Source: Patescibacteria group bacterium | GTDB taxonomy: Bacteria; Patescibacteriota; Minisyncoccia; 2-02-FULL-40-12; GWA2-44-9 | Length of the DNA stretch: 32,401 bases | Assembly (NCBI GenBank): GCA_038064515.1 | Contig: JBBTSY010000006.1 | Location: 1-32,401 of the forward strand | Direction of reading: 5' to 3' | Shown here: positions 22,720 through 31,749 of the stretch, one piece after another | Position numbering within the stretch: position 1 is the stretch's first letter | How the letters are laid out: each line of letters starts with the position of its first letter | Program-made: the position numbers and the translations under genes | Notes under the pieces: model-generated | The model's input: only the letters and a program-made list of their open reading frames with translations | Told to the model about the DNA's origin: nothing | The model's database searches: none

Positions 22720-22894
22720 AGGCTTCTGGTAATTTGTCTTCCTCTTCCTCCTCTTCTTCTTCTACTATATCAGCATCTTCTTCTTCCTCTTCTTCCTCCT
22801 CTTCTTCCACGATATCCTTCTCGGGTTCAATATCGTCTTCGAGAACCAAGCTCTCATCTTCTGTCGAGAATAACAATACTTCTTCTTGGGGCAT
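22718..22894 (-). CDS. 58-aa hyper-acidic small protein
   Basis: ATG at 22894; MPQEEV...DIV(E)10DADIV(E)8DKLPEA; own upstream promoter TTGACT-16-TACAAT and a downstream terminator. Confidence 0.65.
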   Translation of the reverse strand: MPQEEVLLFSTEDESLVLEDDIEPEKDIVEEEEEEEEEEDADIVEEEEEEEEDKLPEA

Positions 22895-24194: not shown

Positions 24195-25214
24195 TTAAAA
24201 ATCAAACACCTTTTCTTTGGATTTTAATCCCAGATGCTGTAACCCGGAATTTGTGATAATGCGGCCCTTTGATGTCCGAGCAAGAAAACCCATCCGCATG
24301 AGATAGGGTTCGTACACATCCTCAATGGTGGCCTCTTCTTCCGAAAGCGCCGCGGCGATTGTCTTAATACCGACCGGCCCCCCGTCGAATTTATCGGCGA
24401 TAACTCTAAGAATCTGCCGGTCAGTCTCTTCAAGGCCGCTCTTATCGATAGCTAGCATGGCCATCGCGCCTTGAGCCATGTCAGCAGTAACCGCAGAAGT
24501 CCCCTTGACCTGGGCGTAGTCGCGCGCACGCTTAAGGAGGCGATTAGCAACGCGGGGGGTGAAACGAGAAGATTGAGCGATTACAGTCAGAGCTTCCGGC
24601 TCTATAGTCACGCCAAGTTTTTCAGCTGAACGTAAAACTATTTTCTCAATATCTTCAGGGGTATAGAATTCTAAACGGAAGTTGGCACCAAAACGAGATC
24701 GAAAAGGCGCGGAAAGGAGGGAGATTTTGGTGGTAGCGGCGATAAGGGTAAAGTGGGGCAAGTCGATTTGGAGTGTTTTAGCCATGTTGCCCTTACCGAT
24801 TATGATATCGAGCTTAAAATTCTCCATGGCGGGGTAAATAACCTCTTCCACCATTCTGTTAAGGCGATGCACCTCATCGATAAAAAGTACATCGCCGTCC
24901 GATAAGCTACTAAGGATTGATCCGACATCACCGGCTTTCTCGAGGGCCGTACCAGAGGTTATTTTGAGATTGGTTCCGAGAGAATGTGCGATAAGGTAGG
25001 CGAGGGTGGTTTTTCCGAGTCCCGAAGGGCCATGAAGAAGAAGGTGTTCCACCGGTTCATTTCGCTTTTTTGCCGCCTCAAGGAGGATCCGGAGATTATC
25101 TTTAATTTGTTGCTGGCCAATATATTCTTGAAAGGTTTTTGGCCGCAAGGCATGGTCCAGAACTTGGTCGTCTAGGGTACTTTTGGGGGCCGTTTCGGGG
25201 GTCTTGACATTCAT
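24195..25214 (-). CDS. ruvB: Holliday junction branch-migration helicase RuvB
   Basis: LRPK.F.EYIGQ, GPSGLGKTTLA, FIDEVHRL, TPRVANRLL, GGPVG, VYEPYL. Confidence 0.98.
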   Translation of the reverse strand: MNVKTPETAPKSTLDDQVLDHALRPKTFQEYIGQQQIKDNLRILLEAAKKRNEPVEHLLLHGPSGLGKTTLAYLIAHSLGTNLKITSGTALEKAGDVGSILSSLSDGDVLFIDEVHRLNRMVEEVIYPAMENFKLDIIIGKGNMAKTLQIDLPHFTLIAATTKISLLSAPFRSRFGANFRLEFYTPEDIEKIVLRSAEKLGVTIEPEALTVIAQSSRFTPRVANRLLKRARDYAQVKGTSAVTADMAQGAMAMLAIDKSGLEETDRQILRVIADKFDGGPVGIKTIAAALSEEEATIEDVYEPYLMRMGFLARTSKGRIITNSGLQHLGLKSKEKVFDF

Positions 25215-25260
25215 CTGGTTTTAGATTACAATAGACAAGTAGACAATCCCGTTGTATAGT
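25204..25260 (+). promoter_or_regulatory. Two tandem plus-strand sigma70-like promoters pointing into the ruvB-pilB intergenic region
   Basis: TTGACA (25204-09)-17-TACAAT (25227-32) and TAGACA (25232-37)-17-TATAGT (25255-60). No plus-strand CDS follows. Confidence 0.6.
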
Positions 25261-25296
25261 CGGGATTTTCTTTTTTAGTCTTTTTTTGATCTTTCG

Positions 25297-25469
25297 AAAA
25301 GGACCGTTATAATCTGTAGGCAATTGGGTAAAGTGGTCACACACGTAACTCAATCGGGGTATTTTCTTAGCCGGATAGCTCGGTTTCGACTGTGCTACTC
25401 CTCAGAAGTATCCTGTCTCAATTCCTCTAAGGAGCTGAGCGTTTGCCTACAGGTTATAACGGTCCTTTT
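25297..25469 (+). ncRNA. Putative structured ncRNA (~173 nt) with 6S-RNA-like architecture
   Basis: 27-bp closing stem (25297-25323 / 25443-25469, one U-G pair), an internal long stem capped by a UUCG loop, and two flanking mini-hairpins. Non-Watson-Crick pairs are mostly G-U on the plus strand; upstream promoters are present. Confidence 0.6.
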
Positions 25470-25473
25470 TATT

Positions 25474-27162
25474 TTATCCTAATACTCGTTCGATCTCTTC
25501 AATGGATGTGGTGCCTTCCAGTAATTTTAGGTAGCCATCCTGCGTCATCGTTACCATCCCTTCCTTCACGGCTAGGTCTCGTACATCGGAAATAGTGGGG
25601 GATTCCATGACGAGTCGCTCCATATCTTTGGTAACTGTAAAAATTTCATATACGCCGACCCGTCCCTTGTATCCCGAACCATTGCATTCGGCGCATGCAC
25701 TTGGGAAGTAAATTTTTAATGATGAATCAAGCGGGGGAAGAGTGAATTTTCCTTTAATGGGCTCCAGGAACTTTTTAATAGCTTCCAGTTGTCCAGAGGA
25801 AGGCGGTTGTTCAATTTTGCAATGTTTACAGAGGCGGCGCAACAACCGCTGGCCCATGGCCATGTTGATGGCGGGGGCGATAACCTGCGGCCGAATACCC
25901 AGATCAATCAGGCGAGGAATGGTTCCGGCGGCATCGTTGGTATGAATGGTAGAAAAGACAAGATGACCGGTAAGCGAAGCATTCAGTGCAATCTCGGCCG
26001 TCTCTTCATCGCGGATTTCGCCGACGAGAATGATATCCGGGTCCTGGCGAACGATAGCGCGCAAGCCGTTAGCAAATGTGTATCCTTTTTCTGCATCGAT
26101 TTGGGTTTGGGAAATACCTTGGATATGGTATTCGATGGGATCTTCAATTGTAATAATTTTTGCATCCGCTGAATTCAAGAAATTCACGAACGCATAGAGA
26201 GTAGTTGTCTTACCGGCGCCAGTAGGGCCGGTGGTAAGAATAGCTCCCGTAGATCTCTTGAGCTGTTGGCGCACGAGTTCAAGAATATCGGCGCGCATTC
26301 CAAGATCTTCCAGATTTGCGTTGATACTTCGAGGATCAAGGAGACGCATCACAATCGTCTCGCCGAATTCACTGGGAAGGATTGAGACACGAACTTCAAT
26401 CTCAACCGATTTTTGGCGGATAGTAAAACGCCCATCTTGGGGGGACTTGTGGACATTAAGCTTGAGTTTCGAAAGCACTTTTACTCGGTTGAGGATCTTC
26501 CCGTATGAATCAGACTGAATGTTGGTGATATCATGGAGAAGGCCGTCAAGGCGATATCGTAACCGAACTTCAGCTGATTCCGGTTCGAAATGGATGTCGG
26601 AGGCCTGGGTCTTGAGTGCGCCGGCGATGATGATTTCTAGAAGTTTCGTGGCTGAAATTTTAGTAACCCTAGCTCTTAGGTCATTCAGGTCGGTAATCTG
26701 TTGCTGGAGCTGATCTAATTCGCTGTCGCTGATGTCGATAGCGCCAATCTCAAATGTTTCCACTGCTTTTATGTCACCATACCGGGCCCACACTTTTTCT
26801 AAAGCCTCTCGCGTGGTGATAACCACCTTATATCGAAACCCGCGCTTTTCAAGTTCAGTGAGTGCCGTTTTGGTAGCACTTAGCGTGGGATCGAGGGCGG
26901 CCACAATAATATCGTTGCTATTTCTGTAGATAATGGCGATCTGGGCGGCAAGTGCCGTATGCTTATCAAGCATTATGAGTGCTTCTACATCGATTGGCGT
27001 AGCATGGAGGTCGGAAAATGAGAGTCCGAGGCTGTTGGCGAGCTGGTGAGATGCCTGTCCTTTGCCTTGCGATCGGATCTCTTCAAGCTTTTTCTCAAGC
27101 ATCTTTTCCGCTTCGCTGCGTTTGTGATTCGGAGTTGTAGACGAAACAGGGGGTAAGGCCAT
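25474..27162 (-). CDS. pilB: Type IV pilus assembly ATPase PilB / GspE family
   Basis: ASDIHFEP, RYRLDG, PQDGR, GPTGAGKTTT (Walker A), TIEDPIEY, RQDPDIILVGEIRD, TGHLVFSTIH, CKHC...CAEC zinc motif. Confidence 0.93.
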   Translation of the reverse strand: MALPPVSSTTPNHKRSEAEKMLEKKLEEIRSQGKGQASHQLANSLGLSFSDLHATPIDVEALIMLDKHTALAAQIAIIYRNSNDIIVAALDPTLSATKTALTELEKRGFRYKVVITTREALEKVWARYGDIKAVETFEIGAIDISDSELDQLQQQITDLNDLRARVTKISATKLLEIIIAGALKTQASDIHFEPESAEVRLRYRLDGLLHDITNIQSDSYGKILNRVKVLSKLKLNVHKSPQDGRFTIRQKSVEIEVRVSILPSEFGETIVMRLLDPRSINANLEDLGMRADILELVRQQLKRSTGAILTTGPTGAGKTTTLYAFVNFLNSADAKIITIEDPIEYHIQGISQTQIDAEKGYTFANGLRAIVRQDPDIILVGEIRDEETAEIALNASLTGHLVFSTIHTNDAAGTIPRLIDLGIRPQVIAPAINMAMGQRLLRRLCKHCKIEQPPSSGQLEAIKKFLEPIKGKFTLPPLDSSLKIYFPSACAECNGSGYKGRVGVYEIFTVTKDMERLVMESPTISDVRDLAVKEGMVTMTQDGYLKLLEGTTSIEEIERVLG

Positions 27163-30372: not shown

Positions 30373-31527
30373 ATGAAACGTATTTATCTCGACCATGCCG
30401 CCGCTACGCCTCTTAATGCTCGAGTCAGGAAAGCCATTATTAAAGTGCTTGGTGTCGCGGGGAATCCTTCCTCGTACAATAATGCCGGCCGTGAGGCGGC
30501 GATGATGCTTGAAGAAGCGCGACAGACTGTCGCGCGATTTTTAGGCGCTCATTCCGATGAAATTGTATTCACCAGCTCGGGTTCGGAGGCCAATGCCCTT
30601 GCAATTTTAGGCGTAATGAATGGATTTAAAAAAGAGAGGATACTTACAACGCCCATCGAACATCTTTCGGTACTGGAGTCGATTAAAGCAGTAGTTTCGG
30701 GGGGGGAAGTTTCGATGATTGCCGTCAATGAAAAAGGGGTAGTGGAGCTCAAAGATATCCGGGAAAAATTAACTTCGACGACCATCCTTGTTTCGGTAAT
30801 GTATGCCAATAATGAGATTGGCACTATCCAGCCAATCGCGCAGATCGGTAAAATGATTCGCGAATTTCGCAGGAAGTATAAAGTGTCGTTTCCGCTTTTC
30901 CATGTCGATGCGTGCCAAGCTACTGAATATTTGGATATGAATGTTCAGCATCTTGGCGTAGATTTCCTGACTTTTAATGGCTCAAAAATTTACGGTCCTC
31001 GGGGGACTGGTGTATTATATGTTCGTCGGGGAGTTACGCTCCAATCGCTTATTCGTGGAGGGGGGCAGGAGCAGGGGCTTCGCGCAGGTACTGAAAATGT
31101 GCCGGCATGTATCGGTCTCGCAGAAGCACTTGAGTGTATACCCAAACAGGAGAAAGCTCGACTAACACTCCTGCGAGATTATTTTTTTACCCAACTCAAG
31201 GCATGTTTGTCGGATGTGCGAATTAACGGATCGCTCGGCGATGACCGATTGCCTAATAATGTCAATATCTCAATCCCGGGGCTGGATAGCGAAAATCTTC
31301 TTCTGGAGCTGGATGCGGCCGGTATTTCGGCGGGTAGCGGCTCGGCATGCACGGCACGAAGCGTAGAGCCTTCACATGTTTTAAAAGCCATTGGCGTAAA
31401 GAAGCCATATCTTGATGGCGCATTACGTTTTTCTATGGGCCGAGCAACAACAAAAAAAGATATTGACTATGTCTTACAAAAGCTTCCATTGATAATAAAA
31501 AAATTACACAAACGCTATCAAAAGTAA
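30373..31527 (+). CDS. iscS: Cysteine desulfurase (IscS/NifS, class I)
   Basis: IYLDHAAATP, GNPSS, FTSSGSEAN, ANNEIGT, HVDACQ, SKIYGP (PLP Lys), GGGQE, SGSAC (catalytic Cys). Confidence 0.95.
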   Translation: MKRIYLDHAAATPLNARVRKAIIKVLGVAGNPSSYNNAGREAAMMLEEARQTVARFLGAHSDEIVFTSSGSEANALAILGVMNGFKKERILTTPIEHLSVLESIKAVVSGGEVSMIAVNEKGVVELKDIREKLTSTTILVSVMYANNEIGTIQPIAQIGKMIREFRRKYKVSFPLFHVDACQATEYLDMNVQHLGVDFLTFNGSKIYGPRGTGVLYVRRGVTLQSLIRGGGQEQGLRAGTENVPACIGLAEALECIPKQEKARLTLLRDYFFTQLKACLSDVRINGSLGDDRLPNNVNISIPGLDSENLLLELDAAGISAGSGSACTARSVEPSHVLKAIGVKKPYLDGALRFSMGRATTKKDIDYVLQKLPLIIKKLHKRYQK

Positions 31528-31528
31528 G

Positions 31529-31557
31529 TTGAAGTTAATTACCTTTTTTGTTAGGAT
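31529..31557 (+). promoter_or_regulatory. Promoter of the tRNA pair
   Basis: TTGAAG-17-TAGGAT with a TG extension. Confidence 0.45.
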
Positions 31558-31581: not shown

Positions 31582-31653
31582 GTCCCCATAGCTTAACGGA
31601 TAAAGCATCAGCCTTCGAAGCTGTTGATGGGGGTTCGATTCCCTCTGGGGACA
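31582..31653 (+). tRNA. tRNA-Arg (anticodon TCG), CCA not encoded
   Basis: Acceptor stem GTCCCCA/TGGGGAC, D-arm GCTT/AAGC, anticodon loop CTTCGAA, T-loop TTCGATT. Confidence 0.95.
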
Positions 31654-31664
31654 CTACATCGCAT

Positions 31665-31737
31665 GCGCCCTTAGCTCAGTTGGTAGAGCTGCTCCCTCTT
31701 AAGGAGAAGGTCGGGGGTTCGAATCCCTCAGGGCGCA
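31665..31737 (+). tRNA. tRNA-Lys (anticodon CTT), CCA not encoded
   Basis: Acceptor stem GCGCCCT/AGGGCGC, D-arm GCTC/GAGC, anticodon loop CTCTTAA, T-loop TTCGAAT. Confidence 0.95.
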
Positions 31738-31749
31738 CATCAACACAAA

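Follow-up and report, generated by a model that had tools for sequence, protein, structure and literature searches.

Among structured bacterial RNAs, the raiA motif, OLE and ROOL are large orphans whose functions were unknown when they were discovered. Y RNA and YrlA carry a conserved terminal stem, formed from both ends of the molecule and bearing a multi-branched module, and are presumed to be stable, protein-bound RNAs. In ribosomal RNA (rRNA) precursors, the RNase III stems are long perfect helices of at least 20 bp that form from the sequences flanking a functional RNA. The Patescibacteria, or candidate phyla radiation (CPR), make up a large share of bacterial diversity, and their non-coding RNAs (ncRNAs) are almost unstudied. 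Here we analyse a stretch of 32,401 nucleotides (the window) of contig JBBTSY010000006.1 from a Patescibacteria group bacterium, whose genome (G000) consists of 647,023 bases in 12 contigs and is 97.6% complete. Based on its fold, conservation and distribution, we propose that positions 25297-25469 of the plus strand are the gene of a previously undescribed, class-specific family of structured ncRNA, ~173 nt in length. We rate this RNA family as new; no Rfam model matches it, and our literature searches on 6S RNA in CPR and on structured RNAs in CPR turned up nothing on such an RNA.

A preliminary description, made from the letters of the window, had offered two identities for the element, a divergent 6S RNA or a new ncRNA built on a four-way junction. 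6S RNA is described as a rod with a relatively unstructured central bubble and with arms broken by small loops or bulges; some bacteria have two 6S RNAs, and small hairpins are possible in the 3' part of the central bubble (PMC8876501). The element resembles 6S RNA (RF00013) and Ms1 RNA in its length and in the pairing of its ends as a long closing stem opposite an apical arm, and further in having a single-copy gene, a strong sigma-70-type promoter and a leader that needs trimming; for Ms1 (PMC9130861), the likeness is a provisional one.

The ends of the element form the longest inverted repeat in the window (25297-25323 / 25443-25469), with 27-nt arms that are 96% complementary and include one U-G pair. 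The minimum free energy (MFE) of the plus strand is -80.3 kcal/mol, compared with -41.6 +/- 3.6 for 200 dinucleotide shuffles (z -10.64), none of which folds as well, and the minus strand has a weaker fold (-69.8 kcal/mol, z -8.47). The predicted plus-strand structure is a four-way junction, in which a closing stem of 26-27 bp (P1) surrounds three hairpins (P2, P3 and P4):

25297..25322, plus strand: 5' arm of P1, placed by the MFE fold, the inverted repeat and the model pairs
25323..25354, plus strand: P2, the 5' hairpin, from the MFE fold; variable in sequence, covarying
25355..25415, plus strand: P3, the long arm, from the MFE fold; UUCG-type apex
25417..25439, plus strand: P4, the 3' hairpin, from the MFE fold; variable in sequence, covarying
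25444..25469, plus strand: 3' arm of P1, which ends in TTTT, followed by TATTTT

The preliminary description had drawn a 27-bp closing stem with one U-G pair, a 5' hairpin, a long apical arm with a UUCG loop and a 3' mini-hairpin. The stem is present and the plus-strand MFE fold reproduces each of the hairpins, which confirms this observation in position as well as in form.

The element occurs once in G000. A BLAST search recovers full-length matches, at 68-77% identity, in 34 of the 36 other genomes of its family. Twenty-nine of 30 family loci were taken (the remaining one, L031, fell below the cut at E 1e-8, and six more matches had no locus), and all of the 29 adopt the same fold with four helices. 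The 29 sequences were aligned with MAFFT independently of any structure (alignment A1), and the 61-pair structure used for pair counts was transferred from the G000 fold. Two wider alignments cover the order (A3; 33 sequences, comprising 13 of the 29 family loci and 20 divergent ones) and the class (A4; 29 sequences). RNAalifold predicts 48 pairs from A1, 21 of them with compensatory changes. In the same alignment 92.1% of the cells are paired; sliding the partners by 1-3 columns lowers this share to 32-47%, and shuffling lowers it to 85.3%. Not one of 500 shuffles reaches the alignment on any of five measures. Across the class, 92.2% of the cells in A4 are paired, compared with 40-48% after sliding and 69% after shuffling, and again 0 of 500 shuffles are as good. 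Both sides have changed at 30 of the 61 pairs in A1 and at 54 of the 61 in A4, so the covariation among homologues of the spacer between pilB and ruvB, which had been named in advance as a check on the element, is strong.

These changes are spread over the structure. Both sides have changed at 23 of the 24 pairs of P1 in A4, at all seven pairs of P2 (helix 2; 4 of 7 in A1) and at all seven pairs of P4 (helix 7; 6 of 7 in A1). Across the 62 rows that were aligned, the 24 model pairs of P1 contain no gap, and each row has between 0 and 3 mismatches. The alignments show compensatory changes in support of all four predicted helices.

The pairing also points to a strand. G-U pairs outnumber A-C combinations at paired cells by about 5:1 (193:41 in A1, 230:39 in A3 and 236:35 in A4). 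Because a G-U pair would become a C-A mismatch on the other strand, this bias fixes the plus strand as that of the predicted RNA and shows that selection acts at the RNA level on a single strand. It bears out, together with the weaker minus-strand fold, the earlier statement that the G-U pairs work on the plus strand only. For the element of G000, the score under a covariance model drops from 165 bits for the plus strand to 54 for the minus strand. The element is non-coding: of 86 homologues, 75 are without an open frame in the plus direction and 83 in the minus direction.

Conservation is unevenly distributed within this structure. The distal half of P1 varies in sequence while its pairing is kept, and the proximal half, AATCTGTAGGCA, is conserved. 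P3 is the arm with the most conserved nucleotides of the RNA: a near-invariant basal G-U pair (29/29 in A1, 26/29 in A4), an asymmetric internal loop (UAG.. opposite UC) and, near the apex, a tandem U-G/G-U (UG in 24/29, GU in 27/29). Several readings of these motifs were rejected by eye. A kissing interaction between the internal loop of P3 (CUUAG) and the loop of P4 (CUAAG) would be possible in G000, and its complementarity is lost in relatives. K-turn and T-loop readings of P3 fall as well: one family has a G-U in place of the G-A, and the T-arm does not pair.

Searches against Rfam 15 return nothing on the element. At gathering scores, the only matches in the whole window are two transfer RNAs (tRNAs). 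With E values up to 10, nothing falls on the element within positions 25150-25600 of the window, and with E values up to 5 nothing falls on the RNA at 20 diverse homologue loci. Weak matches to rimP (E 0.55), MicC (E 1.2) and CRISPR-DR6 lie in the leader, outside the RNA, and those to rimP and MicC arise only from a leader hairpin and its T-run. The 6S model RF00013, with a gathering score of 46.4 bits, was among the covariance models against which the preliminary description had suggested searching; it finds no match to the element, none elsewhere in G000 and none at the 20 homologue loci.

It is also conceivable that the element is a 6S-like RNA that binds the sigma-70 holoenzyme as a mimic of an open promoter, either as a second, atypical paralogue or in the manner of Ms1. 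Its length of ~170 nt, its closing stem and apical arm, its strong promoter and its processed leader would all suit such a role, as would the failure of RF00013 to detect any 6S RNA in G000. The occurrence of two 6S RNAs in some bacteria, and of small hairpins in the bubble, is likewise in its favour (PMC8876501). The structure argues otherwise. Where 6S RNA has an open bubble, the element has a junction whose two flanking strands are both stable, covarying hairpins (P2 and P4), and where the arms of 6S RNA are bulged, P1 is uninterrupted, although P3 does hold an internal loop. RF00013 is silent on the element, in G000 and at the 20 homologue loci.

Furthermore, the element co-occurs with genuine 6S-type RNAs. 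In the phylum sample RF00013 matches 22 of 151 genomes, seven of them above the cut-off, and in the class it matches 7 of 151. These class matches have the classical rod shape, are open at the centre and share motifs; five of the seven genomes (G113, G156, G200, G172 and G126) carry the four-way-junction RNA elsewhere, including G113, whose RF00013 match, at 52.1 bits, is above the cut-off. An nhmmer profile of the seven matches finds one place in G000, C5:27150-27220 (-), with an E value of 4.1e-7. The surrounding 142 nt, C5:27103-27244 (-) (L155:204-345), fold as a rod and have a -10 box and a U-tract of their own; BLAST relatives of this region occur in 4 of 24 other family genomes, and the five sequences share a consensus rod. 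RF00013 gives this region no score, even in a 551-base search. Based on the nhmmer profile, the shared motifs and the rod fold, we consider C5:27103-27244 to be a separate, 6S-like RNA of G000. Our results also show that an ordinary 6S-type RNA exists in these bacteria and largely escapes the Rfam model. The element is not the 6S RNA of these bacteria, and we judge a 6S-like function for it to be very unlikely. Of the two identities first offered, the divergent 6S RNA therefore falls to the missing RF00013 match, the covarying hairpins in place of a bubble, the unbroken P1 and the co-occurrence with 6S-type RNAs, and the four-way-junction ncRNA is upheld by the plus-strand signal, the promoter, the single copy, the covariation and the lack of any Rfam match.

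The other families introduced above show partial likenesses. The element shares with Y RNA and YrlA an end-paired terminal stem bearing a multi-branched module and a presumed protein-bound role, but it has no Rfam match, its P1 is perfect and lacks the bulged Ro-binding helix, and its neighbours are pilB and ruvB rather than rsr. With the raiA motif, OLE and ROOL it has in common a restriction to one lineage, strong covariation, multi-stem junctions and conserved synteny; it differs from them in sequence and structure, in the absence of an Rfam match, in its phylum and in its antisense orientation to both neighbouring genes.

The distribution of the RNA is broad within one class. A covariance model built from A1 (R1) finds it in 101 of 105 genomes of the order, in 49 of 49 genera and in all four families, at one copy per genome. 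With the strict filters of large searches, a model built from A3 (R2) finds it in 90 of 151 sampled class genomes and 77 of 124 genera; with the filters off at the ruvB locus, three of five re-examined class genomes with no match do have the RNA in the pilB-ruvB spacer, at 47-50 bits. In the phylum-wide sample 0 of 144 genomes of other classes match, and the only matches are within the RNA's own class, in G000 and three of six others. These model searches show that the predicted RNA is confined to a single large class of Patescibacteria (CPR), almost all members of which possess it. It is rare for a structured RNA family of ~170 nt to reach almost every genome of a class.

Taken alone, a 27-bp inverted repeat could suggest a mobile element, and a miniature inverted-repeat transposable element (MITE) had been named as the alternative to an RNA. 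The element is present in G000 as a single copy, which excludes the MITE, and the conserved core of P1 has no second occurrence in the genome. A palindrome acting at the DNA level was rejected along with it, on the grounds of one copy per genome, a fixed syntenic position, the lack of any match in a phage and plasmid comparison, and a G-U bias that reflects selection on one strand of RNA.

Another kind of disguise would be that of a universal RNA, the signal recognition particle (SRP) RNA or some other. In its favour, SRP RNA is otherwise unaccounted for in G000: RF00169 and RF01854 have no match in the genome, and no SRP RNA model matches the element. The identities of 5S rRNA, transfer-messenger RNA (tmRNA) and RNase P RNA were rejected, as these RNAs sit elsewhere in G000. 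An SRP RNA identity is unlikely because neither Ffh nor FtsY was found. PF02978 finds nothing in G000; PF00448 (the Ffh/FtsY GTPase) reaches 20 bits at best in G000, gives 0-2 weak matches in 61 genomes of the order and matches 0 of 151 genomes in the class sample and 0 of 151 in the phylum sample; and TIGR00959 matches 0 of 31 relatives, a closed one-contig genome included. Motif scans of the six-frame translation return no SRP-GTPase motifs. Control searches were positive in 14 of 14 genomes. Either the sampled bacteria are without SRP or these searches share a blind spot. The ftsY and SRP genes that appear in two TM7x transcriptome papers were set aside, their locus-tag prefix APY09_ being taken as the host's. 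The absence of SRP matches bears on how membrane proteins are targeted in such cells. Overall, we regard it as extremely unlikely that the element is a universal RNA in disguise or a DNA palindrome or MITE.

A candidate for the RNase P RNA of G000 lies at C7:10077-10567 (-). Its 65.6 bits fall short of the gathering score of 100, and with a span of ~490 nt it is a divergent or expanded form.

The signals around the RNA lie in a 259-nt spacer between two minus-strand open reading frames (ORFs), the start of one and the end of the other facing the element:

24195..25214, minus strand: ruvB, the divergent neighbour, with Pfam domains RuvB_N, AAA_lid_4 and RuvB_C
25204..25232, plus strand: promoter of the RNA, with -35 box TTGACA at 25204-25209, a 17-nt spacer and -10 box TACAAT at 25227-25232; score 11/12
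25245..25276, plus strand: leader hairpin AATCCCG-N9-CGGGATT with a T-run, located from the sequence between the promoter and P1
25474..27162, minus strand: pilB, the convergent neighbour, a T2SSE ATPase with an MshEN domain (Pfam T2SSE, E 8e-119)

A site of the form TTGACA-16/17-TAnnnT, with at most two mismatches, lies ahead of the RNA in 28 of the 29 loci of the family and in 28 of the 29 of the class. Over both sets, 56 of 58 loci have this promoter, close to the form TTGACA-17-TAnAAT. We show that this predicted, near-consensus sigma-70-type promoter belongs to the RNA. Two promoters had been reported upstream in the preliminary description; three promoter-like sites are in fact present, at 25204, 25232 and 25286, of which only the first is kept in relatives. 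The -35 box ends 2 nt before CAT 25212-25214, the start codon of ruvB, and the same arrangement recurs in most family loci; in loci beyond the family, the -35 box is clear of the ruvB start.

The first codons of ruvB (Met-Asn-Val-Lys) carry on their opposite strand the -35 box TTGACA. The N-terminus of RuvB and the promoter therefore constrain each other.

Because the -10 box stands anywhere between 6 and 164 nt away from P1, the 5' leader counts as unconserved. Its GC hairpin, followed by TTT, occurs in 10 of 29 family loci (G000 included) and in 3 of 29 class loci. The hairpin appears to be accessory and looks like a terminator or attenuator; it could serve as an attenuator, as a 5' protective hairpin or as part of the ruvB leader. 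At the other end, 16 of 29 loci of the family and 12 of 29 of the class have a T-run of at least 4 after the RNA, and an A-run of at least 3 precedes it in 12 of 29 and 13 of 29, respectively. In the window a T-run follows P1, in agreement with the U-tract described after the stem. A scan for consensus terminators reports 0 sites, which we take to be a consequence of the P1 stem exceeding the stem and loop limits of the scan.

The position of the element is invariant. Downstream, the stop codon of pilB begins 5 nt past the 3' arm of P1 on the opposite strand (the ORF ends at 25474). Among the 29 family loci, ruvB is upstream on the opposite strand in 29, at a gap of 25-326 nt, and pilB is downstream on the opposite strand in 28, at a gap of 1-121 nt, the 29th locus ending at a contig edge. 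Other families of the class supplied another 32 loci: all 32 have pilB in the expected place, and 31 have ruvB there, a contig end accounting for the one that does not. yebC lies beside ruvB in at least 25 of 30 family loci and 8 of 32 class loci, these counts being lower bounds set by short flanks. Three genomes of other classes have ruvB without an adjoining pilB. In one genome with the RNA (G105), ruvB is on another contig and the RNA is still convergent with pilB. The covariance model called the reverse strand in G105, because P1 is nearly palindromic, and the orientation there was set from the promoter and the fold energy (-60.7 vs -54.3).

The RNA of G105 (locus L146, G105:C9:1439-4583; RNA at ~1501-1645) is a reduced form of ~145 nt, in which P2 is weak and no P4 stands out.

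This fixed address invites a reading in cis, by which the element belongs to the pilB-ruvB junction as a regulatory module. It would exist mainly to terminate transcription from both sides or to insulate the two genes, with antisense read-through tuning pilB, and with transcriptional interference or promoter occlusion, where the -35 box and the start codon overlap, tuning ruvB. An invariant position (ruvB 29/29 and 31/32; pilB 28/29 and 32/32), with a gap to the pilB stop that is often 1-20 nt, is what such a module would have. The A- and U-tracts beside P1 in about half of the loci, the 2-nt distance between the -35 box and the ruvB start codon, seen in G000 and in the majority of the family loci, and the RNA of G105 that stays convergent with pilB though ruvB is gone, all fit as well. 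However, termination or antisense control needs no four-way junction, no covarying P2 and P4, no invariant G-U pair and no P3 loop. The U-tract is missing from half of the loci, the overlap of the -35 box with the ruvB start is absent outside the family, and a near-perfect promoter suggests that the product is wanted in quantity. We consider this explanation unlikely, while according it some weight. The frozen position can be explained either by such a cis function or by overlapping signals, namely a terminator stem shared with pilB and a promoter that overlaps ruvB.

A variant of cis control would have the element act as a riboswitch-like sensor, in which P1 decides whether transcription terminates or continues antisense into pilB. 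The architecture does recall that of an aptamer, with several helices meeting at a junction, an internal loop that is conserved and a closing P1; in addition, a U-tract follows P1 in about half of the loci, and the RNA is convergent with pilB. Yet a perfect P1 of 24-27 bp, in a fold of -80 kcal/mol overall, is too stable for switching. Downstream there is no gene on the sense strand for it to control; the nearest plus-strand gene, nusA, is 1.9 kb off, beyond the convergent pilB. There is no alternative, anti-terminator pairing and no Rfam riboswitch matches, and we hold a sensor of this kind to be highly improbable.

We propose instead that RNase III trims the precursor made from the element by cutting through P1, and that the mature product then works in trans together with a postulated protein. 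We would give this proposal, which rests on sequence comparison, about an even chance of being right. The primary transcript would have a variable 5' leader (0 to ~160 nt) and, in about half of the loci, a U-tract. P1 would serve as a processing stem cut by the genome's own RNase III, as occurs with rRNA precursors; G000 encodes an RNase III in a 231-aa ORF with an ERLEFLGDA signature. Such a role is probable because P1 is long, perfect and of constant length, and is accompanied by a variable leader and by a U-tract in only half of the loci. Cleavage would leave a mature RNA of ~145-150 nt that retains the sequence-conserved proximal half of P1, and we infer both the processing and this retention. 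The likeness to the processing stems of rRNA, and to bidirectional terminators, lies in the long perfect helix, in the A- and U-tracts of about half of the loci and, for rRNA processing, in the RNase III encoded in G000. In contrast to the stems of rRNA precursors, the proximal stem of the element is conserved in sequence and is probably part of the mature RNA, and its cleavage is inferred.

The mature RNA would be stable and would act in trans as the partner or scaffold of the postulated protein. This protein would probably recognise the conserved P1-proximal duplex and the internal loop of P3 with its tandem G-U. In loci with an A-tract on one side of P1 and a U-tract on the other, the stem is probably also a bidirectional terminator shared with pilB, and in the family of the window's genome the predicted promoter overlaps the ruvB start. 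Sharing a terminator with pilB and overlapping a promoter with ruvB would explain the frozen gene order.

Several points weigh against this proposal. The class-wide fixed position hints at a link in cis, for which a purely trans-acting RNA has no need. A terminator-like hairpin between promoter and RNA is odd for a constitutive stable RNA. Because A3 and A4 were produced by fitting to the covariance model, they are biased towards its structure. Finally, transcription, the RNA ends and cleavage by RNase III are predictions from sequence, and the protein partner is a postulate.

The near-perfect promoter, the full covariation and the lack of a match among 4227 Rfam families make it likely that the RNA marks an unknown piece of core biology, such as a new ribonucleoprotein. 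We suggest, tentatively and with somewhat more doubt than belief, that it is a core cellular RNA of a major CPR class, kept as widely as tmRNA or RNase P RNA and residing in a new ribonucleoprotein. The covariance model, together with the fixed address in the pilB-ruvB spacer, can be used for annotating these genomes.

A more specific role can be imagined by analogy. In G000 the RNA adjoins a ruvB-yebC-ruvC cluster, of which ruvB is the neighbour kept throughout the class. By this analogy, the four-way junction of the RNA might imitate a Holliday junction and titrate the proteins that bind such junctions, just as 6S RNA passes for an open promoter. We give this variant very little credence because in G105 the RNA has stayed with pilB where ruvB has moved.

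Other features of the window lie apart from the element. Direct repeats of the TCTTCC/TCCTCT type at 22737-22816, amid short overlapping ORFs, are probably low-complexity coding sequence. Near the end of the window, tRNA-Arg(TCG) and tRNA-Lys(CTT) stand in tandem at 31582-31738, as identified by Rfam and ARAGORN, and an A/T-rich inverted repeat at 31449-31552 lies upstream of this tRNA pair.

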